This document shows positions 984 through 16,888 of a DNA stretch of 43,269 bases, piece by piece (positions within the stretch are counted from its first letter, which is position 1; every line of letters starts with the position of its first letter). The translations under genes were made by a program, and so were the position numbers. Where the stretch lies: NCBI GenBank assembly GCA_045586995.1, contig JAZNBI010000017.1, forward strand, positions 1-43,269, written 5' to 3'. The notes beneath the pieces are model-generated. The model searched no databases, was not told where the DNA came from, and was given only the letters and a program-made list of their open reading frames with translations. Source of the stretch: Eubacteriales bacterium. GTDB taxonomy: Bacteria; Bacillota; Clostridia; Oscillospirales; CAG-272.

Positions 984-1148
984 TGTTGGTAGCTTTTGCG
1001 GCGCTTGGTAATGTGCAGGTGTACGCACCTTTACTTCTTCACTTTTCACTATTACCTATTACTTAAATTCCGTGCGCTGATTTAGTTAAAAGTGAATAGT
1101 GAAGAGGTAATAAGTAAAAATTCCGCACGCTCTCGCGCACGGAATTTT

Positions 1149-1192
1149 TGGCACCCGCAACGGGAATCGAACCCATAACTAACCCTTAGGAG
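1149..1192 (-). pseudogene. orphan 3' half of a tRNA-Arg(CCU) gene (anticodon loop to CCA); island attachment-site repeat
   Basis: 41 of 44 positions are identical to 15356-15399. There is no tRNA 5' half beside it. Its acceptor 3' strand TGCGGGT pairs with the orphan 5' half at 15493-15533. Confidence 0.8.
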
Positions 1193-1454
1193 TATGATTG
1201 AGGCGATTTCAGTCACCTTTATATAGCTTTAACAAATCCCCGTTAATCCCTTGTAATATAAGGAGTTAACGGGGATTACTTGTTAAGTGTTCACTTTTAG
1301 TGTTATTTAGTTTTTACCATATTCATTTTTTCTTTTGTAGGCAAAAATGTTGGCAAATGTTTTTGTTTATCAAAAATGAATATAGAAATTGATATACAAT
1401 GCATTTACTTAGATTAATTTATATTTAATTAGTCCCCATTTTAAGGAAAAAGTC

Positions 1455-1483
1455 TTGAATTTTTCAGTCGAATATGGTAAAAT
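1455..1483 (+). promoter_or_regulatory. promoter TTGAAT-17-TGgTAAAAT for the TM/GTPase operon
   Basis: -35 at 1455-1460, 17-nt spacer, extended -10 at 1475-1483. It lies about 30 nt upstream of the AAGGAGG RBS. Confidence 0.55.
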
Positions 1484-1511
1484 AATGTTGACAGTATAAG
1501 GAGGTAATTTC

Positions 1512-1742
1512 ATGGTACCCTTTGATCATAATGAAAAAAACAGACATGAATGGTTAAAAAAAGAAAAAATGCTACGCAAAACTATTATATCGATTATTTT
1601 AATTACTATTTTGCTTGTTGCAATCATTATCTGTGATGTTTTTCTTTTTCAATCTGTAATTCTGAGTATTATCTCTGCCTGTGGTTCGATTGCTTCAGTT
1701 GTAGGAATAATACTTCAACTGAAAAACAAATCTAAAGATTGA
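1512..1742 (+). CDS. small membrane protein, 76 aa, two predicted TM helices
   Basis: AAGGAGG RBS 7 nt upstream. Two hydrophobic stretches (IISIILITILLVAIIICDVFLF and VILSIISACGSIASVVGIIL). It is the first gene of a three-gene operon. Confidence 0.7.
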   Translation: MVPFDHNEKNRHEWLKKEKMLRKTIISIILITILLVAIIICDVFLFQSVILSIISACGSIASVVGIILQLKNKSKD

Positions 1743-1754
1743 TGGGAGGTTTTT

Positions 1755-2771
1755 ATGAAAATTACAATGTTGGGATTTACTTCCAGTGGAAAAACTACAT
1801 ATCTTTCTGCATTATTGGGATTATTCTATCAAGGCTCAGTTGATGGATTTTCATTTCGTGTTCCAAATAATAGAAGCGCCGAGGTTAATAAAGTAATTGA
1901 CAGAATTGATACTCTTAACAAATTTGGCGTTTTCCCAGATGCCACCGTAGGTGATATTACAAAATTAAGTCTTGAATTATATAAAAACAATAATCATTTA
2001 ATTGATTTTGAGTTTATTGATTATAGAGGCGGTGCCTTAAATGATATTGCAAAAAATGAAAATACAGATGCTACAATAGAATTGGAGACAACCATTTTAG
2101 CTAGCGATGTAGTATTAGTTTTCGTCGATGCCGTAAAACTTAACGAATGCAGAAATGATAATGTTGCTAGAAACTATTTAGGAGTTTTACCGATAACTAC
2201 TGTTCTTTCGCGCGCTAAAGAAGAAGCTGCAAAATCTAACAAAAAAATTCGTATAGTTTTTGTTCTTACAAAAACAGATGCTAGTACACTTATAAACACA
2301 AGTATCCAAAGTTTGAAAACAAGAGTAAAATCTCTTTATTCTAATCTATATTTGCGTTTTGGGCAAGAAGCAGACGAATTCAAAATTTATGATATCGGAA
2401 CAGTTGGAAAACACTGTGTTCAAACCAACACTCAATGGAAGATTGAAAATGGTATTCGAACTCTAATTTGCGATAATCAAATAACGGACATGAACTTTAG
2501 ACCCTTTAATATTGCCGCAGTTTTTGCCCAAGCTTTATTAGAAAGTATTAACAATTCTGAATATAGTTCGGAAATACTTTCAAACCTGTTAATAGCCAAA
2601 GAATCTAATTTTGGGAAATTAAGGCAGTTGTTTGATATACTATTTAATAAGAGTTCTCGCCGATTAGAAATTCGAGATATAAAAGCAACTCTTGAAGAAA
2701 GCAGAAGAAACCTTGCAAGATTAAAATCTTACAATTTAGAGTTAATAAGAATTACACGAAGTGGGCGATAA
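1755..2771 (+). CDS. P-loop GTPase (TRAFAC-like: G1 GFTSSGKT, G3 DYRGG, G4 TKTD) with helical C-terminal tail
   Basis: GGGAGG RBS. The G motifs are in canonical order. There are no Era/Der/Obg-type accessory domains. Confidence 0.75.
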   Translation: MKITMLGFTSSGKTTYLSALLGLFYQGSVDGFSFRVPNNRSAEVNKVIDRIDTLNKFGVFPDATVGDITKLSLELYKNNNHLIDFEFIDYRGGALNDIAKNENTDATIELETTILASDVVLVFVDAVKLNECRNDNVARNYLGVLPITTVLSRAKEEAAKSNKKIRIVFVLTKTDASTLINTSIQSLKTRVKSLYSNLYLRFGQEADEFKIYDIGTVGKHCVQTNTQWKIENGIRTLICDNQITDMNFRPFNIAAVFAQALLESINNSEYSSEILSNLLIAKESNFGKLRQLFDILFNKSSRRLEIRDIKATLEESRRNLARLKSYNLELIRITRSGR

Positions 2772-2775
2772 TGAA

Positions 2776-3453
2776 ATGAAAAAAATTATTTCATCAAATA
2801 TTTTATTCACGCGAACTCTTCAACTCGATTATCGTTGGATATATTGGGATGAGAACATATCTGACATTGATAAGTATGTTTTTAATCAAGAAATTAAAAA
2901 GTTTGAAAATGATAAATTTTTTTTCCTACAAAACAATCATTTGTTTTGTAGGAAATTAACCAATGGAATTGCATTATACAAATTTTTTGATACACAAAAA
3001 TTTGATTCAAACATGAGAAAAATATATGCACTTTCTGGTTTTTTATTCTTAGGCAAACAATGTGATATAGCATATGATGTGTTAAGTTCCATTACGGCGG
3101 ATGCTTTTTTGAACCTTGAATGCAACAGTGAAGAGATATATGATAATACACAAAAGCAAAATAAATTTTCAGACTATCCAATACAATCGTTGTATAATAA
3201 GCTTTTTTTAGAGAATCAAACATCTTTATTGAACGTAAAAAAAGAGATAGAAATGTTTCTTATGTGTCATGAAAATAAGAATGGTTTTCTTATTTTTGAA
3301 AGGAATGAGCAATTGAACTTTTCCGAATTTGAAGATTTAGATTTATCTTCTCGAACAAACCAGCCAACATCAACTGCTACGGGCATCAAAGATAATAAAA
3401 AGAGTAAAGTATCCAAAAGAAAAAAGAAACGATTTTTTCTTTTAGGAAAATGA
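2776..3453 (+). CDS. hypothetical protein, 225 aa, Lys-rich C-terminus, no recognised domain
   Basis: The ATG is 4 nt after the GTPase stop (the track's GTG at 2761 overlaps that gene). It is the last gene before a 20-bp terminator hairpin. Confidence 0.65.
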   Translation: MKKIISSNILFTRTLQLDYRWIYWDENISDIDKYVFNQEIKKFENDKFFFLQNNHLFCRKLTNGIALYKFFDTQKFDSNMRKIYALSGFLFLGKQCDIAYDVLSSITADAFLNLECNSEEIYDNTQKQNKFSDYPIQSLYNKLFLENQTSLLNVKKEIEMFLMCHENKNGFLIFERNEQLNFSEFEDLDLSSRTNQPTSTATGIKDNKKSKVSKRKKKRFFLLGK

Positions 3454-3511
3454 ATAATAGAATTAAATAAGATTCTATGTTTTCAAAATGAATATTAAAT
3501 GAAATCAATAC

Positions 3512-3557
3512 AAAACACCTATTTGATATCTGGTTTTAGATATCAAATAGGTGTTTT
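3512..3557. terminator. bidirectional terminator, perfect 20-bp stem (AAAACACCTATTTGATATCT/AGATATCAAATAGGTGTTTT)
   Basis: It lies between convergent operons. The A/T runs that supply the U-tracts on both strands lie within the stem ends. Confidence 0.8.
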
Positions 3558-3603
3558 GGTTATTATTTTCTTTGGTGCTTTAATTGCTATTTTGGTTGTT
3601 TAA

Positions 3604-3939
3604 TTATTTCAATGTTGCTCCCGTAGCATCCACATTAATTTTTTGGGTCAAAATCATAATACCTTCTATAAGTCCCCAAATACTTCCTACTCCACAACAG
3701 AATACAGATAAAAGAATCTGTATAATAGCTTTAACGTGGAATCCGAGATAGAAGTTATGTACTCCGAAACCACCGAGGAAGATTCCCAACAATCCTGCAG
3801 TAACGCGCTTCTTAGCACCGACTCTTACATTTGCTTGGGGGGCAGCCGCCTCCGGCATAGGCTGCTTTTCTCCGCATTCATCACAGAAAACGGCAGAATC
3901 CTCTAATTCTACACCACATTTTACACATCTTTTACTCAT
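3604..3939 (-). CDS. zinc-ribbon + TM2-domain membrane protein (111 aa)
   Basis: N-terminal CVKCG...FCDECG zinc ribbon. TM2-like motif GIFLGGFGVHNFYLG. GAGAGG RBS. Confidence 0.75.
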   Translation of the reverse strand: MSKRCVKCGVELEDSAVFCDECGEKQPMPEAAAPQANVRVGAKKRVTAGLLGIFLGGFGVHNFYLGFHVKAIIQILLSVFCCGVGSIWGLIEGIMILTQKINVDATGATLK

Positions 3940-3954
3940 TGTTTTTTTTACCTC

Positions 3955-6252
3955 TCAATCGTTAATTTTTGTTCCGCATTTACTGCAAAATTTCTTTCCT
4001 TCTTTGATGATGCCACCGCACTTTTTGCATATAAGAGCCGAAGCTGTGTTTTCGGCTTTTTTATCTGTAAATGCTTTCTTTTTTGCGGTAGAGCTGTTTG
4101 TTGGTGTTCCACAGTGTTGACAGAATTTTTTTGTTGATATTATTTTTTGATGACAATTACTGCATTCAATCCAAACATCTTCACTTTCCTGCGTCGTAAT
4201 TTCTTGTGCGGTTGTCTTCGTTTTTTCTGACTCAGTAAAGCTATGACCGCATACTGTGCAGAATTTTGATGATGGCTTCAAATGGCTCTGGCATATAGGA
4301 CAAATTATAGATTCAACAAATGTGCCGTCAGACTGCATAAATCTATGACACTTAGGACAACTCAATTCGTTTGGCAACAGGTACGTGCCGCATATACAAA
4401 TAACGCTATCTTTATAAATTCGATCTATTTGGGTGAGTTTTTCTTTGTCAATATTTTGAATTGTGAATATAAGCTTAGTCAATAACTCAGCCATTTGGTT
4501 TTGAAGGTTGATTGACAAATTCATACCTAAAGTGAAACGATGTACCCGCTTATTATTAACATTACCTTCCGTACCGCACAATCCAGATATGGCATTTATA
4601 AAATGAAGTTCATATTTGTCTTGTCCTAAGCATTCAACAGATTTAATATTGTACAAGTCAAATATAACATTTTCCTTTGACATAAATGAGCCATTATAAA
4701 TTCTTATATTTTTATTTGTAATTACAAATCCCGATTTTCCATCTCGTTTTTCTGTAAGAACTCCAGACGGACGTCCATAAAATAGTATTATAACCTCATT
4801 TTCTGACAAGCCGCTATATTCTTTGACTAATGAATATTTATTTCGTATTCCATTATTGATTCTCTCAATTTCTATATAAGTGCGGAAATTACTCGGGTAG
4901 TTTGTATCACATAAAATCTGATTTAAATTGTCAAACAGTAAGTATGGCGTACGCAGAACAAATTCTTTTTCTATACGAGTTTCCAAGCTTTCTTTAAAAT
5001 GTTGCGATTTGTATATTTGACTACGTATCAATGTTAACGTGGCTTCACGATCGGATATATCACATTTATTGAATGCGGTATAGAAAATATCAATATCGTG
5101 GTGTACCGCTTGTGCTTCATCAATCGTATCATATGTTATACCTTCTACTGTTCGTTTGGATCTATCAACAAGCTCTAAGATGTCACAATATTTTTTATAA
5201 TATTTCGTAGTCGTATATGAAATTGTATGTGAATCACAAAATTCTTTGAGATTTTTTAATGCTTCCTTAATATCTTCCTCACATACAATCGCCGCCTTGA
5301 TAGGATTATTAGAAGAATTATAAGTGCCACAATACCTACTATCATTTTCTTCCGCAAAATCTTCGCAATATCTTGATATATATTCTTTTAATCCCGTATG
5401 GAAATCGACGGACATTCTTACCAAATCACCACTGTGATCTCCGTAATCAAACCAAATCTCTCGATATACGTCCTTATTGTATGGATCTAATTTTAATATT
5501 TCCAACAAAAAAGACAGCTTTTCTTTGATCGGAATAGCTCTAAGATTATTCATCATAGCTTTGGCTTTTGCGGCTTCTTCGTCAGAAACTGTGCGAAAAT
5601 CAAACGGACCTTCATCGCGCATTGATTCCATCAATGCAAATTGTACACATAATACTGTACATTTAGTACAATCAGATAATTCTGATTTATAATAATCATA
5701 AACCTTCGATTTTTGGCTTGATGCTGCAATAGAACTGCCGATATTTCCGAAAGCGTTAACCACACTGTGTCCAAGCCCAGAAACAGCATTCATTGCCCCT
5801 GCACCCATTGCTCCCTTGATTGCCCCACTCATTCCAAAGCCTCCGCCAACCCAACGTCCACGAGAGTCTTTTCGAGCACGCCGATAGTTTGCCGCTGCTT
5901 GCTGATCTCCTTCTATTTCTGCAATCTTATGCATCATTTCGGCACTCATATCGTCAAGATCATCAAAAACATCCGTCAAATATTTTTTCTTAAACAAAGT
6001 TCTATCAATTGAATAAATTTTATTGTTTGTTAAAGTTGAGATACATTCATCAAGCAGTGGCGAAAGAATCTTGTATTTTATTTCATCAAGATTTTGATAA
6101 ACAGCTTTACAACCATATTGCTCAGAATACCACTCTCTAAACTGACTTGGAATAGAATCAAAGAAGGGCAAAAACATATTTTCGATATATCTATAATTCT
6201 CCATATCAGTTTGAATGGTAATAGTCGTTCCGTGTATATCATAAGTTGTCAA
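3955..6252 (-). CDS. 765-aa protein: unknown N-terminal region, Gly/Ala glycine-zipper-like segment, PH-like segment, four C-terminal zinc ribbons
   Basis: TTG start with an AAAGGTGG RBS. It contains GGGFGMSGAIKGAMGAGAMNAVSGLG and four CxxC..CxxC units (CICG..CPKC, CPIC..CTVC, CSNC..CQHC, CKKC..CSKC). Confidence 0.7.
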   Translation of the reverse strand: MTTYDIHGTTITIQTDMENYRYIENMFLPFFDSIPSQFREWYSEQYGCKAVYQNLDEIKYKILSPLLDECISTLTNNKIYSIDRTLFKKKYLTDVFDDLDDMSAEMMHKIAEIEGDQQAAANYRRARKDSRGRWVGGGFGMSGAIKGAMGAGAMNAVSGLGHSVVNAFGNIGSSIAASSQKSKVYDYYKSELSDCTKCTVLCVQFALMESMRDEGPFDFRTVSDEEAAKAKAMMNNLRAIPIKEKLSFLLEILKLDPYNKDVYREIWFDYGDHSGDLVRMSVDFHTGLKEYISRYCEDFAEENDSRYCGTYNSSNNPIKAAIVCEEDIKEALKNLKEFCDSHTISYTTTKYYKKYCDILELVDRSKRTVEGITYDTIDEAQAVHHDIDIFYTAFNKCDISDREATLTLIRSQIYKSQHFKESLETRIEKEFVLRTPYLLFDNLNQILCDTNYPSNFRTYIEIERINNGIRNKYSLVKEYSGLSENEVIILFYGRPSGVLTEKRDGKSGFVITNKNIRIYNGSFMSKENVIFDLYNIKSVECLGQDKYELHFINAISGLCGTEGNVNNKRVHRFTLGMNLSINLQNQMAELLTKLIFTIQNIDKEKLTQIDRIYKDSVICICGTYLLPNELSCPKCHRFMQSDGTFVESIICPICQSHLKPSSKFCTVCGHSFTESEKTKTTAQEITTQESEDVWIECSNCHQKIISTKKFCQHCGTPTNSSTAKKKAFTDKKAENTASALICKKCGGIIKEGKKFCSKCGTKIND

Positions 6253-6324
6253 GATTATTTACCACCTTTCTAACGGACAAATACAAATAATGCACGTTTA
6301 ATTACATTTTTATATCTAACAGAT

Positions 6325-6353
6325 ATTATATCATATTTTTTCGCTCATGTCAA
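6325..6353 (-). promoter_or_regulatory. consensus promoter TTGACA-17-TGaTATAAT for the 765-aa/TM2 operon, back-to-back with the XRE promoter
   Basis: Reverse complement of 6325-6353. The plus-strand -10 TATAAT at 6371-6376 probably serves the XRE gene. Confidence 0.6.
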
Positions 6354-6400
6354 TATCTTTTCTTTTGGGGTATAATATTACTATGGAAAGAGGTGAAGAC

Positions 6401-6637
6401 ATGAAGCTGATATATGAATCGGAATATATGCAACTTGGGCTTAAAATTGCGTATTACAGAAAGCTACGGGGATTGACACAGGAGCAGTTGGCGGAGAAAA
6501 TCGACCGCACTCCCGCGTTTATCGGTCATGTCGAAGCACCGAACATCAATAAAGCGGTGTCTCTTGATACTCTATTCGATATCGCTCACGTTTTGGATAT
6601 TCCCGTATATAAATTCCTTATGTTTGACGAAACGTAA
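6401..6637 (+). CDS. XRE-family HTH transcriptional regulator (78 aa)
   Basis: HTH_3-like YYRKLRGLTQEQLAEKIDRTPAFIGHVE. GAAAGAGGTGA RBS before ATG 6401; the track start at 6347 lacks an RBS. Confidence 0.8.
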   Translation: MKLIYESEYMQLGLKIAYYRKLRGLTQEQLAEKIDRTPAFIGHVEAPNINKAVSLDTLFDIAHVLDIPVYKFLMFDET

Positions 6638-6686
6638 AAATCGTACTCCGAAAATCCTTGAATTACATACTATTTCTATGATATTA

Positions 6687-6720
6687 ACCTGTGGCTACGG
6701 TCACAGGTATTTTTTATTTT
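6687..6720 (+). terminator. intrinsic terminator (ACCTGTG/CACAGGT + T-run)
   Basis: 7-bp stem at 6687-6708 followed by ATTTTTTATTTTT. Confidence 0.6.
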
Positions 6721-6731
6721 TGGAGGATTTT

Positions 6732-7826
6732 ATGAAAGAAAACATTTGCGCCATCTGCAACAGGCCGTTTGCAGAACACGAACTGACCGAATTTGACGAC
6801 CATTTGTTTTGTAAGAGTTGTCTCGCAGAACAGACCGTCCTTTGTCACGAATGCGGTGATCGAATCTACCGTAGTCAGAATGAAGGAACAAGCGATATCC
6901 CTCTCTGTCAAGATTGTTATGATGACCACTACACGCATTGCGAACGTTGCGGTAGGATGATTCATAACGATGCGGCTCACTACATCGACGATAGTGATTA
7001 TCCCTATTGCCGCTCCTGCTATGAGATTGAATGTGACCGCAGTATCAAGGAGTACAATTACAAACCCGATCCGATTTTCTATGGTGACGGTAACAGATTC
7101 TTCGGTGTGGAGCTTGAGATCGACGAGGGCGGTGAGGACGATTCCTCGGCAGAGGATGTGATGTACGCCGGCAACCGCTCAGACGAGCATATTTACTGTA
7201 AGCACGACGGTTCTTTGCAGGACGGATTTGAGATCGTCACACACCCTATGACGTTGGAATATCATATGGCAATTATGCCATGGAAGGACATTACCGACAA
7301 GGCGCGTAAGCTCGGCTATACTTCACATCAAGCTGAGACGTGCGGCTTACATATCCACGTCAACCGCACAAGCTTTGGCGAGAACGCAGAAGCACAGGAC
7401 GAGGCAATCGGGCGCATCTTGTATTTTGTAGAGCGTAATTGGAACGAGCTTTTGATCTTTTCACGCAGAACACAGGAGCAGCTTAACAGTTGGGCGCGCC
7501 GCTACGGATATAAGGATCAGCCGAAGGAAATGCTTGAACACGCCAAGAAAGGCTATGACGGCAGATATACCTGTGTCAACCTTACAAACTATTCTACAAT
7601 CGAATTTCGCATCTTCCGAGGCACTTTGAAATCAAATACCATTCTCGCCACCCTGCAGTTGGTCAACCACATCTGCGAGGTGGCTGTTTCTTTGTCAGAC
7701 GAGGAAGTACGCCACCTCTCTTGGAGTCGTTTCGTAGATCTGATTACCGAGCCGGAGCTGATTCAGTACCTCAAAGAACGCCGCATTTATATCAACGAAT
7801 CAATAGAAACGGAGGAAGAAATATAA
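6732..7826 (+). CDS. amidoligase-family enzyme (glutamine-synthetase-like fold) with N-terminal Cys-rich zinc-finger array
   Basis: GGAGG RBS at ATG 6732. Six CxxC pairs lie in the first ~95 aa. Amidoligase_2-like motifs follow: FGVELEIDEGG, HDGSL..GFEIVTHP, CGLHIHVNR, EFRIFRGT. Confidence 0.75.
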   Translation: MKENICAICNRPFAEHELTEFDDHLFCKSCLAEQTVLCHECGDRIYRSQNEGTSDIPLCQDCYDDHYTHCERCGRMIHNDAAHYIDDSDYPYCRSCYEIECDRSIKEYNYKPDPIFYGDGNRFFGVELEIDEGGEDDSSAEDVMYAGNRSDEHIYCKHDGSLQDGFEIVTHPMTLEYHMAIMPWKDITDKARKLGYTSHQAETCGLHIHVNRTSFGENAEAQDEAIGRILYFVERNWNELLIFSRRTQEQLNSWARRYGYKDQPKEMLEHAKKGYDGRYTCVNLTNYSTIEFRIFRGTLKSNTILATLQLVNHICEVAVSLSDEEVRHLSWSRFVDLITEPELIQYLKERRIYINESIETEEEI

Positions 7827-8764
7827 TGTGCTGTCTGTTTGGAATCTTGGATTACGGAAACACTTTGACCGTCCGACAGCGGACAAAAATCTTGTCAATA
7901 CTTGCATCATCTTGCGAGGTCAGAGGCACGGATGCAACGGGAATCGCTTACAATACCGATTCGCATTTGACTATCTACAAACGCCCAAAAACCGCTCACA
8001 AAATGTGGTTTCGTCTACCTGTGGATGCCAACGTCATTATGGGACACACCCGCATGACAACACAGGGCAACGAAAAATTCAATCAGAACAACCATCCCTT
8101 TTATGGGAGGGTCGGAAATACGCCCTTTGCCCTTGCGCATAACGGAATGCTGATGAATGACGACGAGCTTCAAAAGAAATACCGTCTGCCCAAAACCAAC
8201 ATTGAAACCGATTCCTACGTGGCGGTTCAGCTATTGGAAAGGCAGACGGATCTGTCATTTGAAAGTATGGCAAAGGTCGCAGAGGAGTTGGAAGGCTCGT
8301 TCACGTTGTCGATGCTTGACAACACGAACAACGTCTATTTCGTCAAGGGCAACAATCCGCTCTGCCTTTATTATTGGCGTGAACGGAATTTGTATATCTA
8401 TGCCTCAACAGAAGAAATATTGAAGTCAGCACTCGCTCGTATCCCCTATAATTTCGGCATTGCGGAGAGCATTGAGATCAATGAGGGAGATATGATGAAG
8501 ATATCCCCAAGCGGTTCGCGTGAGACGTCGCAGTTCTCTTTGCAGAATCTTTACGCATACGGATATTATGGATATCCGTATAGATATTTTCTTGATGAAT
8601 GGGATGATGTTGAGCCAAAGGAAACAGGGCGGTCATACAAGGACATTCTAAAATCTATGGCACACACCTTCGGCTACACCGCCGAGGACGTGGACGCTTT
8701 GCTCGCGGAAGGATTCACCTTGCAGGACATTGAAGATTTCTTCTATGAAGGAGTGTACTGTTAG
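7826..8764 (+). CDS. class-II (Ntn, N-terminal Cys) glutamine amidotransferase-like protein
   Basis: The start overlaps the upstream stop (TAATG). The N-terminus is MCCLFGIL. Other motifs: GTDATGIAY, GHTRMTTQG, NNHPF, AHNGML.N. Confidence 0.75.
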   Translation: MCCLFGILDYGNTLTVRQRTKILSILASSCEVRGTDATGIAYNTDSHLTIYKRPKTAHKMWFRLPVDANVIMGHTRMTTQGNEKFNQNNHPFYGRVGNTPFALAHNGMLMNDDELQKKYRLPKTNIETDSYVAVQLLERQTDLSFESMAKVAEELEGSFTLSMLDNTNNVYFVKGNNPLCLYYWRERNLYIYASTEEILKSALARIPYNFGIAESIEINEGDMMKISPSGSRETSQFSLQNLYAYGYYGYPYRYFLDEWDDVEPKETGRSYKDILKSMAHTFGYTAEDVDALLAEGFTLQDIEDFFYEGVYC

Positions 8765-8914
8765 GGTACACCCTATTGAGAGAATCACAAAGTATGCTAA
8801 TAGAGTCGGTTTCGGCATTTTGGAATATGCCATTTGTAAGACCAACCCTATTGAGAATTTGGATTTTTGAGCGTTGCAGTCGTTGGATGATTTCGATTTC
8901 CGCCAAGGCGTAAT

Positions 8915-8945
8915 ATTACTGTTCACGCATCGTGTGAACAGTAAT
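8915..8945. repeat. perfect 12-bp inverted repeat ATTACTGTTCAC-n7-GTGAACAGTAAT upstream of the recombinase gene
   Basis: Exact palindrome arms at 8915-8926 and 8934-8945. No T-run follows, so it is more likely a protein-binding site than a terminator. Confidence 0.6.
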
Positions 8946-9009
8946 TGCGGAAAGCGAAATCAGACGACGATCTGCAGGAGCGAAAAAATCATTATGAAAG
9001 GAAAGAATT

Positions 9010-9558
9010 ATGAAAATCGGATATATACGAATCAGCACCACGGATCAGAATACCTCTCGACAGGAGGTGTTGATGAAAGAACTTGGTGTAGAACAGGTCT
9101 ATATTGACCGTATGAGCGGCAAGAACACCGACCGCCCGGAGTTAAAGCGGATGATGAATTTTGTGCGCGAGGGTGACGAGGTAATTGTGGAATCCATAAG
9201 CCGCTTTGCAAGGAACACCCGTGACCTTTTGGATCTCGTTGAGCAGCTTACGGCAAAAGGCGTTGAGTTCATATCTAAAAAGGAAGCTATTGACACGACA
9301 ACGCCCACTGGCAAATTTATGCTTACCGTCTTTGGCGCGGTTGCCGAACTTGAACGTGAATACACGTTGCAGAGGCAAAAGGAAGGTATTGCGATCGCAA
9401 AGGAAAACGGCATTTACAAGGGACGAAAGCCAATTGAGCGTGATAACTTCGCTTCAGTCGTTTCTCTTTGGAAACAAGAAAAAATCACGGCTGTGGAGGC
9501 AATGAAGCGGCTGAATATGAAACCGAGTACATTTTACAGAAAGGTAAAATCATTATGA
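9010..9558 (+). CDS. small serine recombinase (resolvase/invertase family, 182 aa)
   Basis: N-terminal MKIGYIRISTTDQ with the catalytic Ser context. Also VESISRFARNTRD and a C-terminal HTH. Confidence 0.85.
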   Translation: MKIGYIRISTTDQNTSRQEVLMKELGVEQVYIDRMSGKNTDRPELKRMMNFVREGDEVIVESISRFARNTRDLLDLVEQLTAKGVEFISKKEAIDTTTPTGKFMLTVFGAVAELEREYTLQRQKEGIAIAKENGIYKGRKPIERDNFASVVSLWKQEKITAVEAMKRLNMKPSTFYRKVKSL

Positions 9559-9899
9559 GAGTAATTATTGTTGAACCATACAAAGAGCCATACGAAAAAG
9601 AAATCAACGGAAAGCTGAAAACCTTGCAAGGCTTCGTGGGCGGCTTGATACAAGTGCTATATCCATTTGAGGACGAGCATATTGCCCTCATTTGCAACGA
9701 CGAAGGAAAGCTGCTCGGATTACCGCTTAACCGCGCTCTACGCAATAAGCGCGGCGAGATATATGACATTGTGAGCGGCACGTTCCTGCTTTGCTCTGCA
9801 CCGCCTACAAGTCCACACTTTGAAAGTCTGTCGGACGAGCAGATACAGAAATACATTCAGAAATTCAAAAATATAGAAATTTATATTCGGAGGAAATAA
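9555..9899 (+). CDS. DUF3846-like protein (114 aa)
   Basis: ATGA overlap with the recombinase stop. The motif run VIIVEP..LQ..VGG.I..VYPF.D..ALICNDEGKL.GLPLNRAL is typical of DUF3846. Confidence 0.6.
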   Translation: MRVIIVEPYKEPYEKEINGKLKTLQGFVGGLIQVLYPFEDEHIALICNDEGKLLGLPLNRALRNKRGEIYDIVSGTFLLCSAPPTSPHFESLSDEQIQKYIQKFKNIEIYIRRK

Positions 9900-9901
9900 T
9901 T

Positions 9902-10000
9902 ATGCATTGGACATTACTTGGATTTGTAGTCACCTTGGCGGTACTCTGTGTAATGGAGTTCTGCGGCTCACGCCGCAGAAAGAAAGGGTGCTGCTGTTGA
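9902..10000 (+). CDS. mini hydrophobic peptide, 32 aa (MHWTLLGFVVTLAVLCVMEFCGSRRRKKGCCC)
   Basis: GGAGG RBS 8 nt upstream. One TM-like helix and a basic, Cys-rich tail. Below the track cutoff. Confidence 0.4.
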   Translation: MHWTLLGFVVTLAVLCVMEFCGSRRRKKGCCC

Positions 10001-10118
10001 GAGACTGCCGCACCAATACCGCCTCGTGCTTTGGCGACCACAAATAACGGGAAAGCGTGACCGCTTTCCCGTTAGATAAACAAAAAATAAAATTTAATTT
10101 TTGAAAGGAGACAAAACT

Positions 10119-10244
10119 ATGCCTATTATTTTCGCAGTTGTCGGAACACCGCTCGCATCCTTTGCTGAGGGCGCGATCCTCGCCGCATCCGTGTACCTTG
10201 TAAGCAGAGGCGCAAAGAATCCGTTGAAGAACAAGAAGAAGTAA
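10119..10244 (+). CDS. mini hydrophobic peptide, 41 aa, Lys-rich tail (MPIIFAVVGTPLASFAEGAILAASVYLVSRGAKNPLKNKKK)
   Basis: AAAGGAG RBS 8 nt upstream. It is preceded by a 12-bp hairpin (10046-10073). Below the track cutoff. Confidence 0.45.
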   Translation: MPIIFAVVGTPLASFAEGAILAASVYLVSRGAKNPLKNKKK

Positions 10245-10249
10245 TATTC

Positions 10250-10365
10250 TGTGTCAATGTGTCAGTGTCACAGGATATTTTCTTTTTATCCTTATATATT
10301 TCTCGTCAAAAATATGCTATAATAGAGGAAAATAAAAGTATGTGTGACACTGACACATTGACACA
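10250..10365. repeat. perfect 23-bp inverted repeat (TGTGTCAATGTGTCAGTGTCACA) bracketing a 70-bp promoter-bearing segment
   Basis: Arms 10250-10272 and 10343-10365 are exact reverse complements. Each arm contains three GTGTCA units. Confidence 0.9.
10315..10323 (+). promoter_or_regulatory. extended -10 element TGcTATAAT inside the IR-bracketed segment, facing the 490-aa gene
   Basis: TG at 10315-10316 and TATAAT at 10318-10323. The -35 is weak (TATATT, 17-nt spacing). The RBS AAGGAG (10365-10370) lies just outside the right arm. Confidence 0.45.
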
Positions 10366-10377
10366 AGGAGAAAAGCA

Positions 10378-11850
10378 ATGGATAAACGGATGAAATATTA
10401 TGATATGGATTGTCAATATCCATCTAATGATGCTAATTTCAAATTAACGCTATCAAGCTTGTGCGAAGAGATAATTAAAGATTGTTATACTGATGAAAAA
10501 ATAATAATTGAGTCCTCGGTTAGAGATAAAATCAAAAATTCTAAAAAATCTGGTTTGATTGATAGGTTAAAAAAACAACTTAACTTTGATGTTGAGGCAA
10601 TATCTAAAGGAAACAAGAATGAGATCTTTGACGAATATAAGCTCTTGAAGTTATTGTACTTAATAGAACATAAAGGCTTTTCATATAATGAAAAAGAATA
10701 TGGTAAATTTCCAGTTATAGATTTGCTTTCTAATCCTCGACTTGAAAATGTTCATACTGTTTTTTCTGTCAATGACCATTATGGGGACACATATGAGTAT
10801 TTGTGCAATTCTATTGCGCCATTCGTAAAAGATATTGAAAAACGATGTAAGTTAATACAGCAAGTATCTTCCGACTGGGAGAAAACAGTACTCAATTTTT
10901 TGTATTTCTTTGTTTCTGATATAGCGATAGATTCTTTATGGAGTAATATTTTTTTACTTGACCGTGTTTACTACTATTTGAAAGAAATAATTGAACCTCT
11001 ATTGAAAACAAATATAGAAGAAAATCATAATTGTTATAAAGAAGGGGTATTAAACACTTTTTATAATATTTTGATTTGCTATTATTTCAAGTGCAATGAA
11101 AACGATCGGATTATTAATGCGAGTAACGTTCAATATGTTCTTATGGACTTAAATTACATTGAAAAATATAAAATGTATGATAATATATTTATCCCAATGG
11201 AATTTATTGAAGATGTAAAAAAGTTCTTGTTAGGAAAACACATAAACAACTCCAATGTTAATAAATTTATGGAATTAATTTTCTATAAGAAGGAATTTAC
11301 CGATGATTATGTAAAAAACGTTCTATATGCATTGGATCATGTTGAATCTTATTGGGAAATAGTAAAAAAAGCCAAAAATGCAAGTGATACTGAAATGTGC
11401 TTGGGTATACTTGTTTCTATTGTTCAAGAAATAATATATATGAAAGAAACTAAACCCCAAATAATCAATACTTTTTTAGGACATGAGAACGCACAAAAAT
11501 CGTTATTGAGAATCATATCCTCTCCGAATAAAGAAAATGGGATTGGCTTTCAAATATTGAGAGATCGATTGGAAAACAGGGTAAGCATCAATACGGGCGG
11601 ACGAGAATTGATTGTTCGTGCGAGGATAATACAGAAAGAAATATATAGAATCAAGAAACTCATATTCAGCTATCAAAATATCGAAGATATTATCGAAATT
11701 CACAATATTATACACACCACTGTTGTTAATTTATTTAAAATGGGACGAATAGATACAAATATATTAAAAATGGATTTAGAAAATCAACTTAGTGCTTTTT
11801 TCGAAAAAACAAAAAACTACCATTCAAAACCCAAAGAAAAAACAGAATAG
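10378..11850 (+). CDS. hypothetical protein, 490 aa, very AT-rich, no recognised domain
   Basis: Long ORF with an AAGGAG RBS, followed by a strong terminator. It looks predominantly helical by composition. Confidence 0.7.
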   Translation: MDKRMKYYDMDCQYPSNDANFKLTLSSLCEEIIKDCYTDEKIIIESSVRDKIKNSKKSGLIDRLKKQLNFDVEAISKGNKNEIFDEYKLLKLLYLIEHKGFSYNEKEYGKFPVIDLLSNPRLENVHTVFSVNDHYGDTYEYLCNSIAPFVKDIEKRCKLIQQVSSDWEKTVLNFLYFFVSDIAIDSLWSNIFLLDRVYYYLKEIIEPLLKTNIEENHNCYKEGVLNTFYNILICYYFKCNENDRIINASNVQYVLMDLNYIEKYKMYDNIFIPMEFIEDVKKFLLGKHINNSNVNKFMELIFYKKEFTDDYVKNVLYALDHVESYWEIVKKAKNASDTEMCLGILVSIVQEIIYMKETKPQIINTFLGHENAQKSLLRIISSPNKENGIGFQILRDRLENRVSINTGGRELIVRARIIQKEIYRIKKLIFSYQNIEDIIEIHNIIHTTVVNLFKMGRIDTNILKMDLENQLSAFFEKTKNYHSKPKEKTE

Positions 11851-11859
11851 AAGTGGTAG

Positions 11860-11906
11860 AATAATACCGTAAGGAGCCGGCGACCTTGCGGTATTATTTT
11901 ATTTTT
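11860..11906 (+). terminator. intrinsic terminator, 15-bp stem + T-run
   Basis: AATAATACCGTAAGG / CCTTGCGGTATTATT (one G-U pair), followed by TTTATTTTT. Confidence 0.8.
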
Positions 11907-11916
11907 GGAGGAAAAT

Positions 11917-13533
11917 ATGAAAAACAAAGAAACTCATAATCCTAATATGGATTTAAAAGTTATGGAAGAACCAATGATCTTTTATGATGACTATGGCACA
12001 CCTTTAAAATCACCAATGATTTTCTATAATGGTCCTTTAAATCCAGATTATCCCTTACCACCCATACCCACATTGGGTAAAGAGTACTATAAAAATCTCT
12101 TTTCATATGATAAAGCAGAGCAAAAGAGCAAACCACCGCTGATTGTAAAAGCTCAAATAGTGACAGGAACAGAATCAACCTCAAATATTCAAACGACCGA
12201 TGCGAAGAAGAATTCAAAAAAAGGAAAAGAGGGTGACAACTCTGAAACTGTAACTATTTCAGCACAGTATGCATTGGTGCAAGAGTTTCTGCAAAAGAAA
12301 AGCGTTCGTATTGTAAACGAAGTAATATTTATGTACTTTGATAATTCTTATTATGAAATATCTTTTATTAATCTTAAGCGTGAGCTTTTTGATTGTTTAC
12401 GCAACAAATTAAAATACTATCCCAGTAGCTATGTAGATTCAGTTGCAAATTTTATGCTAAAAGAAAAAAGAATATGCTTTAAACAAAAAGATATTTCAAA
12501 AGAGTATATTGCCTTTAACAATTGTCTCTTAAATATTGCAACTGGACAATGCTTACCACATACACCTAATATTTTTACAACATATAAAATCGAAGCGGAT
12601 TATTATAAGTACGAATCACCCACCCCTCTTTTTGATAATTTTCTATGGAAATCAACTGGTGGGGATCGTGTTTTAATTGAAAGAATTTGGCAAGTGATCG
12701 GATATATTTTAACACCAGATGTTTCTGCCAAAAAATATTTTCTCTTGCAAGGAGTTAGAGACTCAGGAAAAAGTGTTTTGGTTCGTGTCCTGGAAGGATT
12801 ATTTAATGATGATGCAGTAACAGGATTAGACATATCTGAATACGGTCAAAGATTTTCTATGGCAAGTATTATTGGAAAAGCCTTGTGCACAAGCGCAGAT
12901 ATGGAAGGCAAAATAATTGATCTAACATCTGCAAGCAAAATAAAACAACTTACTGGAAACGATACCACAACAACCGATGTTAAATATGGCAAACGAGAAA
13001 AATTTGTTTGTTCAGCTAAACTAATTTTTGCCACAAATCATCCATTTAGAGTTTCCGTTCCAGATCCCGCATTCTTTTCACGGTGCGTAGCAATCCCATT
13101 TTACTATTCTATTCCAAACGAAAAGAAAGATGTTCATCTGGATATAAAGTTATTACAAGAACGTAACGGCATTGTTTTTAAGGCAATTGCAGCTTATAGG
13201 AGATTGGTGGCAAGGAATTATGTTTTTGAAGGTCACTATAGTAAGGATGAAATATTTGCTATGGATGCGGATGACAAAGAAACATATCAAATGTCAATTT
13301 CAAAATTTGCTAAATATTATTTTACAAATGACGAAAACGGTATTGTTTTTATTGAAGATGCCCATCAATTATTTCTGCAAAAATATGGATATGCACCACT
13401 CAACGACTTTTCATATCTGTTTCAAGAATTTGTTAGAGAAAATTATAACGCGCAAAAGGCGAGGAAACGAAAAGCTGGTAATCCTAATGCTCAGAGTTGC
13501 ATTTTGGGGATTTCACTAAAAGAGAGGTGCTAA
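11917..13533 (+). CDS. phage/plasmid primase P4-family C-terminal domain / D5-like SF3 helicase protein
   Basis: GGAGG RBS at ATG 11917. Walker A FLLQGVRDSGKS. Also KQLTGNDTTTTDVKYGK...KLIFATNHPF...FFSRCVAIPF, which is typical of the family. Confidence 0.8.
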   Translation: MKNKETHNPNMDLKVMEEPMIFYDDYGTPLKSPMIFYNGPLNPDYPLPPIPTLGKEYYKNLFSYDKAEQKSKPPLIVKAQIVTGTESTSNIQTTDAKKNSKKGKEGDNSETVTISAQYALVQEFLQKKSVRIVNEVIFMYFDNSYYEISFINLKRELFDCLRNKLKYYPSSYVDSVANFMLKEKRICFKQKDISKEYIAFNNCLLNIATGQCLPHTPNIFTTYKIEADYYKYESPTPLFDNFLWKSTGGDRVLIERIWQVIGYILTPDVSAKKYFLLQGVRDSGKSVLVRVLEGLFNDDAVTGLDISEYGQRFSMASIIGKALCTSADMEGKIIDLTSASKIKQLTGNDTTTTDVKYGKREKFVCSAKLIFATNHPFRVSVPDPAFFSRCVAIPFYYSIPNEKKDVHLDIKLLQERNGIVFKAIAAYRRLVARNYVFEGHYSKDEIFAMDADDKETYQMSISKFAKYYFTNDENGIVFIEDAHQLFLQKYGYAPLNDFSYLFQEFVRENYNAQKARKRKAGNPNAQSCILGISLKERC

Positions 13534-13535
13534 AA

Positions 13536-13745
13536 ATGACATACATGAATTTTGAATCAATGCCTCTTGTAATTGATGTTGTAGATGTGGCAGATACACT
13601 CAAAATTGGTCGCAACAAAGCATATGAGCTTATACAAGAAGGCAAATTGAGAAGTGTAAAGATCGGCAATCAATATCGTATCCCGAGAGAGTCATTTATA
13701 GACTTTTTGATGGGTGAAGTAAGAACAGAAGCCGCTCGTCCTTAA
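13536..13745 (+). CDS. xis: excisionase-family HTH DNA-binding protein
   Basis: AGAGAGG RBS. The motif LKIGRNKAYELIQEGKLRSVKIGNQYRIPRESFIDFL. It lies immediately upstream of int. Confidence 0.7.
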   Translation: MTYMNFESMPLVIDVVDVADTLKIGRNKAYELIQEGKLRSVKIGNQYRIPRESFIDFLMGEVRTEAARP

Positions 13746-13777
13746 AGGGTGAGCGGAAGTAAAAAGGAGGAAATATT

Positions 13778-15169
13778 ATGTCAATCAGACAAAGGGGTAA
13801 CCGCTATCAAGTGAGCTATCGTTGCCCCGGGGAAAGCTCGCCCCGTACAGAAACATTCAAAACCGAGGAAGAGGCTTTGATACGCGAAGCACAGATTCGT
13901 CTTGCCAAGAAAAACGGCTCGTTTGAGCCGCCTACAAGGCTTTCTAAAAACATAATCAAGCAAGTGAAAGATATTACTGTAAGCGACTTCTTAAAGGAAT
14001 TTATAGAGGAATACGGGTTGAAGAAATGGGGCAATTCTTATTATTCCACCAATCTCGGACTCATTAAGAATTATATTGATCCGTTTATCGGGGAACGGTA
14101 CGTGCGTTCGATCACCGTTCGTGATATAGATTCCTACTACACAATGTTGCTTGGTGTTTCTGCGGTTCTACCCGCAGGACACAAGGACACGGGAGAAAAG
14201 GTTACGGCAAGTACGATCGCTCGCATACATAAGCTACTGAAAAGCGCATTCGGCAAGGCGGTAGTATGGGAGTACACCAAGATCAATCCTACACTTGGAG
14301 CAACGCTACCACAGCAACGCACACAGGAGAGGGCGGTATGGTCTGATTCCGAAGCTCTACAGGCTTTGAATCTTTGTGAGCATCCCACGCTAAAAATTTG
14401 TCTGTATCTTGCACTCGGATGCAGTATGCGCCTCGGTGAAATATTGGGATTACAATGGAAAAACGTGCATATGTCTCCCTCTGATATTGGATCGGGAGAG
14501 CCGTATTTGAAAGTAGATCGTGAGCTTCAAAGATGCCGTAATGACAGCATCGAGGTTTTGGAGAGGGTGAACCGCAGTACGATCATCACAAAATTTCCCG
14601 CAGTAATGCCTAAAAAATCTACTACAACATTGGTATTGAAAGCACCAAAGACCGAGAGCAGTAACCGCACAATATATTTACCAAATGCGGTGATTGCAGA
14701 GTTGCAGAAAGTGAAAGCCGAGCAAGAAAAATACAAAGCTATGCTTGGCAACGAATTTCGGGACTATGATTTAGTCATAGCACAGATTAACGGTCGTCCG
14801 TTTGAGATTCGCACGATCGACCGTTGGTTTTATGAACTGATTGAGAAACACTCCTTACGTCCCGTTGTATTTCACAGTTTGCGCCACAGTAGCACGTCTT
14901 TGAAGCTAAAACTAAGCCGTGGTAATATTAAGGCGGTTCAAGGTGACACAGGACACGCCGAGGCTCGTATGGTTACGGACACATACGCCCACGGATTTGA
15001 CGAGGATAGAAAGCTGATCGCAAAGGAAATGGATTCGGGATTTTTCTCTAAAGTTGGCGACAAAATGGCTACTACTCCGCTTACAGATGATACGTTAGAA
15101 AAGCTCAAATTATTGATTCAAGAGCGTCCCGAGCTCTTGAATGAACTGTTGGAAAAGTCAAGTAGATAA
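13778..15169 (+). CDS. int: tyrosine-type site-specific integrase
   Basis: AAGGAGG RBS. N-terminal arm-binding-like domain. Catalytic context MRLGEILGL, FHSLRHSSTS and GHAEARMVTDTYAH. Confidence 0.9.
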   Translation: MSIRQRGNRYQVSYRCPGESSPRTETFKTEEEALIREAQIRLAKKNGSFEPPTRLSKNIIKQVKDITVSDFLKEFIEEYGLKKWGNSYYSTNLGLIKNYIDPFIGERYVRSITVRDIDSYYTMLLGVSAVLPAGHKDTGEKVTASTIARIHKLLKSAFGKAVVWEYTKINPTLGATLPQQRTQERAVWSDSEALQALNLCEHPTLKICLYLALGCSMRLGEILGLQWKNVHMSPSDIGSGEPYLKVDRELQRCRNDSIEVLERVNRSTIITKFPAVMPKKSTTTLVLKAPKTESSNRTIYLPNAVIAELQKVKAEQEKYKAMLGNEFRDYDLVIAQINGRPFEIRTIDRWFYELIEKHSLRPVVFHSLRHSSTSLKLKLSRGNIKAVQGDTGHAEARMVTDTYAHGFDEDRKLIAKEMDSGFFSKVGDKMATTPLTDDTLEKLKLLIQERPELLNELLEKSSR

Positions 15170-15175
15170 TCGGTT

Positions 15176-15237
15176 TTGTAGGCATTTGTAGGCAAAAAGG
15201 CTTGATTTCATTGAAATTGAGCCTTTTTCTGTAGGCA
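15176..15237 (+). repeat. three direct copies of TTGTAGGCA/TGTAGGCA (putative integrase arm-type sites); a fourth copy at 1335-1343
   Basis: Copies at 15176-15184, 15186-15194 and 15230-15237. The same 9-mer occurs at 1335-1343 near the other island end. Confidence 0.55.
15195..15229 (+). terminator. terminator after int (AAAAAGGCT/AGCCTTTTT)
   Basis: A 9-bp stem with an internal ATTTCA/TGAAAT pairing. The 3' arm ends in T5. Confidence 0.55.
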
Positions 15238-15247
15238 GAATTTGTTG

Positions 15248-15357
15248 CATAAATTGCATACTTTTTAAACACATATTGAAAACTGTTCTGAAATATGATA
15301 TAATAAAAAGCGTCGATAAAAGTCTTGTAAATTTAAGGCTTTTCGACGCTTTTTATG
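15248..15357 (+). repeat. 110-bp unit, copy 2 (promoter TTGAAA-17-TGaTATAAT at 15276-15304 + hairpin 15309-15350), abutting the tRNA 3' end
   Basis: Paralog of 874-983. On the minus strand the hairpin plus T-run doubles as the tRNA terminator. Confidence 0.8.
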
Positions 15358-15430
15358 GCACTCCCAACGGGAATCGAACCCATATCTAACCCTTAGGAGG
15401 GGTTTATTCTATCCATTAAACTATGGGAGC
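15356..15430 (-). tRNA. tRNA-Arg (anticodon CCU), CCA encoded
   Basis: Cloverleaf drawn by hand. Acceptor GCTCCCA/TGGGAGT, D-arm GTTT..GAAT, anticodon arm AACCC-CTCCTAA-GGGTT, T-arm ATGGG-TTCGATT-CCCGT. Confidence 0.85.
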
Positions 15431-15492
15431 AGTTTGGCTTATATTCAGTTTTTATGCAGTGGAATATTCGCATTGGCGGATGTTCCTCCTTC

Positions 15493-15533
15493 CCCTTAGG
15501 AGGGGTTTATTATATCCATTTAACTATGCAGGC
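15493..15533 (-). pseudogene. orphan 5' half of a second tRNA-Arg(CCU) gene (acceptor 5' strand to anticodon loop)
   Basis: GCCTGCATAGTTAAATGGATATAATAAACCCCTCCTAAGGG. The D-stem shows a compensatory change (GTTA/TAAT). tRNA similarity ends at CTCCTAAGGG, the same point where the 1149-1192 fragment begins. Confidence 0.7.
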
Positions 15534-15649
15534 GTATTATTTAAATTTGATTTTTTGCGAATTGCAAAAGTATATAAATCCGACAACGGAACAAGTATAT
15601 CACAAATAGATTCAAAAATCAATGCTTTTTTAAAAAGGAGGCGACACAA

Positions 15650-16690: not shown

Positions 16691-16771
16691 TACAAGGTCC
16701 TCTTACTTCAAAAATGATGGCATAATTATAGCAAAACGAGCATATATTGTCAATATTTTTAAAAAAAGTTA

Positions 16772-16888
16772 TTGACAAAGCGCCTCTATAATGTTATAAT
16801 AATATGCCGCTTAAAAGCGGGCTTTTTAAGTGTTGCTTTTGCAATCGCCCGATTTAGCGAGTCTATATATGAAAGAGAGGTGCTTTTC
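16772..16888 (+). promoter_or_regulatory. rplU promoter (TTGACA-17-TGtTATAAT, 16772-16800) and L21-type leader with attenuator hairpin CCGCTT/AGCGGG + T5
   Basis: Consensus promoter hexamers. A leader hairpin plus T-run lies before the rplU RBS, as in Firmicutes L21 leaders. Confidence 0.6.

Follow-up and report, generated by a model that had tools for sequence, protein, structure and literature searches.

The contig JAZNBI010000017.1 of a Eubacteriales bacterium (assembly GCA_045586995.1), a stretch of 43,269 nucleotides that is referred to here as the window, carries at 1193-15492 an inserted island of 14,300 bp, which very probably split the resident gene for tRNA-Arg(CCU), located upstream of VanZ-rplU, and supplies a complete cognate gene. 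Three tRNA-related pieces, all on the minus strand, are central to this reading. A complete tRNA-Arg(CCU) gene borne by the island lies at 15356-15430 (ARAGORN; 62.2 bits with Rfam RF00005). Of the resident gene, a 3' half that reaches from the anticodon loop to CCA remains as an orphan at 1149-1192, on the host side of the left junction, and a 5' half remains as an orphan at 15493-15533, its first 10 bp (15493-15502) being the right copy of the core. All three pieces had been proposed in an earlier note made from the sequence, and they were found as described there by ARAGORN, Rfam and alignment. The simplest reading of that note, in which the two orphans are the halves of a second, split gene and the insert includes the intact one, is supported by an uninterrupted gene in a related contig (L106), by eight contigs with natural genes that equal the joined halves, by covariation between the orphans and by an island boundary defined by two sister islands (L107 and L108).

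The 3' orphan is identical to the 3' half of the intact gene (15356-15399) at 41 of 44 positions, and the 5' orphan to its 5' half at 36 of 41. The 5' orphan ends with CTCCTAAGGG, precisely the point at which the 3' orphan starts, and a 10-bp direct repeat, CCCTTAGGAG, occurs at 1183-1192 and 15493-15502. The acceptor strands of the two orphans (GCCTGCA/TGCGGGT) form five Watson-Crick and two G-U pairs. A chimera of the 5' half of the intact gene with the 3' orphan shows a C-C mismatch at 5:68 in the ARAGORN drawing, and the D-stem pair 13:22 is A:T in the 5' orphan and T:G in the intact gene; the acceptor pairing, the mismatch and the D-stem change described earlier were thus all reproduced. 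The acceptor pair 5:68 is G5:C68 in the orphans and C:G in the intact gene and in the syntenic genes of three further contigs (L001, L002 and L004), and by this comparison G5:C68 appears as a derived compensatory change common to both orphans. Where the orphans differ from the intact gene, the genes of L001, L002 and L004 side with the orphans at six of eight positions, and the 5' half of the intact gene departs from the host lineage at four of the five positions where the 5' orphan matches it.

ARAGORN accepts all four combinations of the halves, including both chimeras, and is therefore non-discriminating alone; minimum-free-energy folding was poor at cloverleaves and was used for the acceptor helix only. 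The comparison set comprised 78 metagenome contigs with an uninterrupted tRNA-Arg(CCT) gene of the resident type. Among these, all nine natural genes with GCCTGCA also have TGCGGGT, and eight of the 78 contigs carry an uninterrupted natural gene that matches the in-silico join of the two orphans with 100% identity, so that the pieces are not chance matches; the sequence of the intact gene of the window is carried by none of the 78. The joined gene is accepted by the Rfam covariance model with 57.9 bits, as the covariance check suggested in the earlier note would have it. The isolated halves lack a significant score (12 bits, E = 7.8, for the 3' orphan and no match for the 5' orphan), which was judged uninformative rather than a rejection, as models of whole tRNAs are not designed to recognise internal halves. 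Neither of the island junctions scores as a tRNA in ARAGORN or Rfam. These comparisons support the view that the two orphans are the halves of one resident tRNA-Arg(CCU) gene split at its anticodon loop.

The locus without the island is seen in the contig L106, which encodes the only close relative of the window VanZ (P0242, 86% amino acid identity) and is 86% identical to the window in the DNA of the upstream flank and of VanZ. There, a single uninterrupted tRNA-Arg(CCT) gene with the acceptor strands GCCTGCA/TGCGGGT abuts the same upstream flank and VanZ. This gene is identical to the joined orphans at 72 of 75 positions and to the intact gene of the island at only 64 of 75, and the site has neither the spacer nor a second tRNA copy. 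The search for an island-free relative thus returned one uninterrupted gene, and an empty site with two intact genes in tandem, which the earlier note would have counted as a refutation, did not turn up. L001, L002 and L004 likewise have one tRNA-Arg(CCT) gene beside VanZ, in conserved synteny. The exact VanZ protein of the window was not found on record and VanZ relatives in reference genomes have at most 41% identity, though the synteny is still usable. The genes to the right of the island, VanZ, rplU, prp and rpmA, mark chromosomal core DNA of a Firmicute. To the left, the sequence that natively follows the resident tRNA gene (986-1148, minus strand) has a hairpin with 39-nt arms at 1030-1118 and a terminator hairpin at 1116-1149. 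The host segment 1030-1148 adjoins the uninterrupted gene in L070, L073 and L087; a foreign origin of 986-1148 was considered and ruled out, since the segment flanks an intact gene elsewhere.

In an ancestral tandem duplication of the tRNA gene, the upstream copy would have decayed and the island would be unrelated to the 5' orphan. Tandem tRNA-like repeats are indeed present in L046 and L102, but the extra copies in L046 are fragments and not genes. Moreover, the 5' orphan stops exactly at the anticodon loop where the 3' orphan starts, it is identical to intact natural genes at 41 of 41 positions and hence shows no decay, and only one gene is present at this site in relatives, with L106 contradicting the duplication directly. 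A history of this kind is therefore scarcely credible.

The extent of the island follows from a comparison of its junctions with those of sister islands (L022, L016, L020, L107/L108 and L110) and from the GC mosaic. The contigs L107 and L108 agree at every position of a 4,714-nt stretch that includes the tRNA, the spacer and the core, and they diverge 3 nt past CTTAGGAG; they therefore hold a single island in two different hosts, and the core marks its boundary. Because the identity of the two runs through the tRNA, the intact gene and the spacer are, as judged from this comparison, wholly island-borne. In the window the island starts with TATGAT... directly behind the left core copy (1183-1192, CCCTTAGGAG, with the family-conserved part CTTAGGAG at 1185-1192) and ends with ...TCCTCCTTC. 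Its own tRNA is separated from the right core by a spacer of 62 bp (15431-15492, minus strand), which ends in a conserved ...TCCTTCC. In the four closest islands, ...TCCTTCC(a/c)C on one side of TTAGGAG and TATGAT... on the other are conserved. As island-side sequences beside the core are conserved in this way, the common core across the family is the 7-8-bp anticodon loop (C)TTAGGAG, and the 10 bp of the window are a chance extension of it. Of the 10-bp core put forward in the earlier note, the repeat itself is thus present in the window, but the core shared by the family is shorter. Both orphans end or begin at CTCCTAA(G), which places the crossover at the canonical anticodon-loop sublocation.

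The earlier note had also considered a classical anticodon-loop integration through the 44-bp repeat (1149-1192/15356-15399), in which the island contributes only the 3' half of the intact gene and the 5' orphan is an unrelated older remnant. The 41/44 repeat is in canonical configuration with the integrase beside the intact gene, and in phage HP1 the homology between attP and attB, the attachment sites of element and host, extends beyond the tRNA gene, which was counted for this alternative. Putative arm-type sites lie 120-180 bp from the 44-bp repeat; they had been taken to favour it, but do not. The gene before integration would have had the C-C mismatch at 5:68, and its 5' half would be off the host lineage at four of the five positions where the 5' orphan fits. 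Furthermore, the L106 site has no spacer and no extra 5' half, L107 and L108 stay identical through the whole tRNA and spacer and differ only past the distal core, and the end of the spacer is conserved among islands in different hosts. On the evidence of L106, of L107/L108, of the lineage of the 5' half and of the mismatch, the classical 44-bp core was rejected, and such an integration is highly improbable.

Very unlikely, too, is a history in two steps, in which an earlier island was lost through recombination and left a scar of 5' orphan and spacer before a replaced tRNA, which then served the present island as the target of a classical integration. Arrays of 5' fragments that resemble scars, as in L046 and L102, would fit such a loss, and the 44-bp repeats could support a homologous deletion. 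However, the 3' orphan is purely host-type and pairs with the 5' orphan and not with the intact gene, the spacer is conserved with the island and co-inherited by it, the same two steps would be needed in six lineages, and the island-free site of L106 carries no scar.

The arrangement that is read here as a split resident gene with an island-borne replacement recurs in sister islands. It was found in six of seven sampled integrase lineages (97, 76, 74, 72 and 65% identity plus the window; L016/L018, L020, L021/L022, L107/L108 and L110-112), always in the order integrase, arm repeats, terminator, complete tRNA-Arg(CCT), spacer of 41-64 nt, CTTAGGAG, orphan 5' half and host DNA, and it is kept even where the host tRNA is of a different, GC-rich type. 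The contig L022 contains a complete sister island of about 14.5 kb with both ends visible. Its orphans pair with each other in the acceptor stem (GCTCCCA/TGGGAGT) and in the anticodon stem (AACCC/GGGTT), the anticodon stem of its island tRNA being AGCCC/GGGCT. As judged from these layouts, the split-and-replace design is a trait of the family. The recurrence also bears on a possible assembly artefact, i.e., a metagenome contig mis-joined at repeated tRNA sequence. The window looks like a metagenome-type assembly, public runs contain only relatives of it at about 95%, and tRNA repeats do break assemblies, as the end of L106 at its tRNA illustrates; but the same junction layout occurs in independent assemblies (NCBI, ENA, JGI and Logan) and in different hosts, which leaves a mis-join with hardly any probability.

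A second element lineage (L104 7664-9534, L059 and L064) has the same design at the same tRNA with an integrase only 23% identical to that of the window and with a LexA-like repressor. In L104, L059 and L064, and at 88-340 of L002, an orphan 5' half ending in CTCCTAAG is followed by a spacer of 135-147 nt and an intact gene, and in L104 then by the integrase. Other arrangements were observed at tRNA-Arg(CCT) as well. At 680-1020 of L046 (and also in L102) an intact gene is preceded by two tandem 133-bp units, each composed of a 76-nt spacer and the 5' two-thirds of a tRNA broken in the T arm; by their structure these units look like accumulated 5'-fragment scars of elements crossing over at the T loop. 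In L049 (10728-13510) and L033 (around 5348) an intact gene is accompanied by a displaced extra 3' half a few kb downstream, and these may be small classical islands or their remnants.

Read along the minus strand, the locus begins in host DNA with a promoter-like site of the resident gene (15622-15594), followed by the 5' orphan, the 62-bp spacer, the intact gene, its terminator and flank (15355-15242), three arm repeats and the convergent integrase gene. Further on are encoded an excisionase-like helix-turn-helix (HTH) protein, a P4/D5-type primase-helicase, an unknown 490-aa protein, DUF3846, a small serine resolvase, a GATase/amidoligase pair, an HTH repressor-like protein and an AT-rich cargo (multi-zinc-ribbon, TM2 and Double-GTPase proteins). 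At the far end follow far-arm repeats at 1336-1355, TATGAT, the core, the 3' orphan and the host terminator region. The island thus brings the whole gene for tRNA-Arg(CCU) together with a terminator, 62 bp inside its integrase-proximal end and co-oriented with the split resident gene. A repeat search and alignment, going beyond the earlier note, revealed that the 116 nt downstream of the intact gene (15242-15357) are 80% identical to the host sequence 868-983 beyond the 3' orphan, and because of this flank homology (island flank with terminator 15242-15355, minus strand; host segment 868-985) the island carries a whole tRNA locus, a gene with its terminator flank, and not a fragment. The host segment has a promoter-like site at 902-930 on the plus strand and a hairpin terminator at 931-980. 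In both places, 902-985 and 15276-15355, a near-consensus promoter-like site (TTGAAA-17-TG-TATAAT, plus strand) is directly followed by a bidirectional terminator hairpin; the site is antisense to the tRNA, at 15276-15304 in the flank of the island tRNA, and is present in the host flank as well.

The integrase is a tyrosine recombinase of 463 aa (13778-15169, plus strand; Pfam PF00589 and PF14659) with about 2000 homologs, mostly from gut metagenomes. The excisionase-like HTH protein is encoded at 13497-13745 on the plus strand (NCBIfam TIGR01764, PHROG 66; HTH_17 in sister islands), and the true start of its gene is probably internal, the homologs having 65-67 aa. Three putative near-arm sites, TGTAGGCA at 15177, 15187 and 15230, are located between the integrase gene and the island tRNA (15177-15237, plus strand). 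The putative far-arm sites, TGTAGGCA at 1336-1343 and ATGTTGGCA at 1347-1355 (together 1336-1355, plus strand), are about 145-160 bp from the core. TGTAGGCA has four copies in the window against 0.68 expected, at 1336, 15177, 15187 and 15230, all of them at the island ends and on one strand, and repeats equivalent to the near-arm sites are found in L016, L020, L021, L107 and L110.

It is proposed that the tyrosine integrase recombines through a very short core, (C)TTAGGAG, which consists of the anticodon loop of 7 nt and one further base. The attP of the island would have no tRNA 3' half adjoining this core, for which reason neither junction rebuilds a tRNA. The resident gene is left as the 5' half at 15493-15533 and the 3' half at 1149-1192, 14.3 kb apart, and the island tRNA would replace its lost function. 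The promoter-like site of the resident gene (TTGATT-17-TATACT with TG, 15594-15622, minus strand; scan and alignment) is conserved in L106, and a scan found no promoter-like site in the spacer 15431-15492. The putative resident promoter therefore probably drives transcription of the island tRNA, in a precursor whose leader, the orphan 5' half with the spacer, would be removed by RNase P. Integrase and excisionase may be able to reverse the insertion. The predicted attP of about 480 bp comprises arm sites, terminator, tRNA, spacer, core, TATGAT... and far-arm sites; in the predicted circle 15492 is joined through one core to 1193 (...TCCTCCTTC-CCCTTAGGAG-TATGATTG...) and 15356-15492 are retained. 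Since the island tRNA would restore a clean anticodon stem-loop similar to attB, the site could be used for integration again. If an island were then lost through recombination involving the displaced 3' half, scars of 5' fragments in tandem would remain, similar to those of L046 and L102.

Several points weigh against a split of the resident gene with replacement by the island tRNA. The contig L106 belongs to a relative and not to the same strain, and it ends at the 3' end of the tRNA, so that the downstream side of the site is unseen; no single contig shows both flanks of an empty site, and empty sites for the hosts of the sister islands were not found when the sister flanks were compared with the 78 intact-gene contigs. 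The integrase of L109 (3001-4392) is 70% identical to that of the window and yet has no tRNA downstream, HTH genes following instead. Neither an excised circle nor the attP junction was found in the read layouts of eight metagenome runs, the contigs of which were short, shallow and mixed with tRNAs of other organisms, or by searching IMG/VR for patterns of attP and of the junction; the present mobility of the island and its precise crossover point are for this reason deduced from the integrated form. Joints from 1181 to 15492 (X4 and X12) were not counted as junction evidence, as their tRNA is slightly different and their sides are only 30 nt. The host is covered by 43 kb only, and as AGG can in many cases be read by tRNA-Arg(UCU) too, the host may be able to do without the split gene.

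The arrangement resembles the tRNA-dependent lysogeny described for the actinobacteriophages Fionnbharth (K4), Cluster L, Gaia and others, in which a tyrosine integrase uses an 8-17-bp core within a tRNA gene, no tRNA is rebuilt, and the cognate tRNA of the phage is required for viable lysogens (Guerrero-Bustamante and Hatfull, mBio 2024, PMC10865867). Four of the defining features are shared by the island. It has a tyrosine-family integrase with putative arm-type sites at both ends, its attB lies in a host tRNA gene around the anticodon loop (L106 and the eight contigs that equal the join), its core is short (10 bp in the window, 7-8 bp in the family) with no tRNA rebuilt at the junctions attL and attR, and it carries a cognate tRNA, here tRNA-Arg(CCT) at 15356-15430. 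The feature of being a temperate phage is absent. No structural, packaging or lysis genes were found in the island with Pfam, PHROGs and NCBIfam and, since no virion, packaging or lysis genes were recognised, the 14-kb island is not a phage and the term lysogeny does not apply. Unlike Fionnbharth, the element of the window is a 14-kb non-phage island in a gut Clostridia host with tRNA-Arg(CCU) as its target. In the window family the replacement tRNA is located inside attP, 41-64 bp from the core and co-oriented, whereas the tRNA of Fionnbharth is located elsewhere, overlapping gene 37, and has its own promoter. Dependence on the tRNA of the element is experimental in the actinobacteriophages, whereas the island is known from its sequence. 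Close relatives of the actinobacteriophage integrases include classical, reconstituting systems (PMC10865867). The Lactobacillus johnsonii prophage Lj965, cited as a possible case among Firmicutes, is described as disrupting a tRNA gene without rebuilding it and as carrying tRNA genes that might compensate for this (PMC10865867, PMC3714127); like the island it is an element of a Firmicute, but it is a prophage with, by the statements of these papers, four tRNA genes. Relatives of the window integrase were not found in IMG/VR, and faecal records named Bacteriophage sp. with integrases of about 40% identity were set aside, as they have no tRNA and no terminal overlap.

With classical islands (Williams, 2002; Islander, PMC4383910) the element shares the tyrosine integrase, the anticodon-loop crossover, the integrase beside an intact tRNA and the displaced 3' fragment at the far end. 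In classical islands, however, the tRNA fragment of attP is contiguous with the core, so that one hybrid gene is rebuilt and one fragment displaced, whereas the window has two displaced fragments and an intact gene that belongs to the island throughout. Since this gene does not combine host and element sequence, the island is, by its gene arrangement, not a classical reconstituting one. Islander recorded 3,760 islands with 3' fragments and 159 with 5' fragments; its type of logic would call the window island from the 44-bp repeat with the end misplaced by 103 bp, and its filters, given an interval below 2 kb, would drop the 5' fragment (PMC4383910). Phage satellites such as phage-inducible chromosomal islands resemble the element in small size, integrase, excisionase-like and repressor-like HTH proteins and P4/D5-family primase-helicase. 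Genes for packaging or capsid redirection, with which such satellites exploit a helper, were not recognised among the island open reading frames, several of which are without any match, and no helper is known; the island is at most a candidate member of this group.

The remaining genes of the island fall into two parts. The AT-rich variable cargo at 1512-6252 (30-34% GC) encodes a 76-aa protein, a Double-GTPase (PF19993), a 230-aa unknown protein, a TM2 protein with zinc ribbon and a 765-aa multi-zinc-ribbon protein; sister islands have WYL-domain and other genes at this position instead. The cargo is possibly a defence cargo, and PADLOC returned nothing convincing on its genes. The conserved part of higher GC content at 6732-9899 (45-48%) encodes the pair of amidoligase (PF12224) and class-II GATase, the small serine resolvase and DUF3846. 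It is common to L016, L021 and L023-L027, and in L023 it stands in a different context beside a type I restriction-modification system. Further observations concern the host flanks. The non-coding left flank has a hairpin at 517-639 with 37-nt arms that are 89% complementary and a 49-nt loop; metagenome variants skip the loop or the hairpin (joints from 553 to 603 and from 535 to 652), with very deep reads in some runs, and Rfam has no match for it. An L21 leader is found upstream of rplU in L106 at 1326-1402 (Rfam 37 bits, threshold 36), and none at the gathering score in the window at about 16700-16780.

The kind of system is thus already described and less novel than the earlier note assumed; new are the non-phage island and the Clostridia host. 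Disruption of a tRNA gene with replacement had so far been demonstrated only in actinobacteriophages, although its discoverers predicted that it may occur more widely (PMC10865867), and it now appears in non-viral islands and in abundant gut Firmicutes as well. This matters for the mapping of islands, as a search for an intact tRNA with a displaced 3' fragment puts the boundary 103 bp too far in and reports the host tRNA as intact, though the functional gene is foreign. Once tested, the compact module of attP, tRNA and integrase could become an integration tool for gut Clostridia that are hard to engineer. The full tRNA at 41-64 bp from the core may be an intermediate between a classical attP with a tRNA 3' half and phages that keep their tRNA elsewhere. 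One tentative and rather doubtful generalisation is that a large family of non-phage islands of gut Clostridia has built a replacement tRNA into its attP, with arm-type sites on one side and the core on the other, that integration thereby swaps the allele of the host for that of the island and puts it under the control of the resident promoter, that such islands drive the turnover of tRNA genes, and that this design may have evolved at least twice, because the integrase lineages are only 23% identical.

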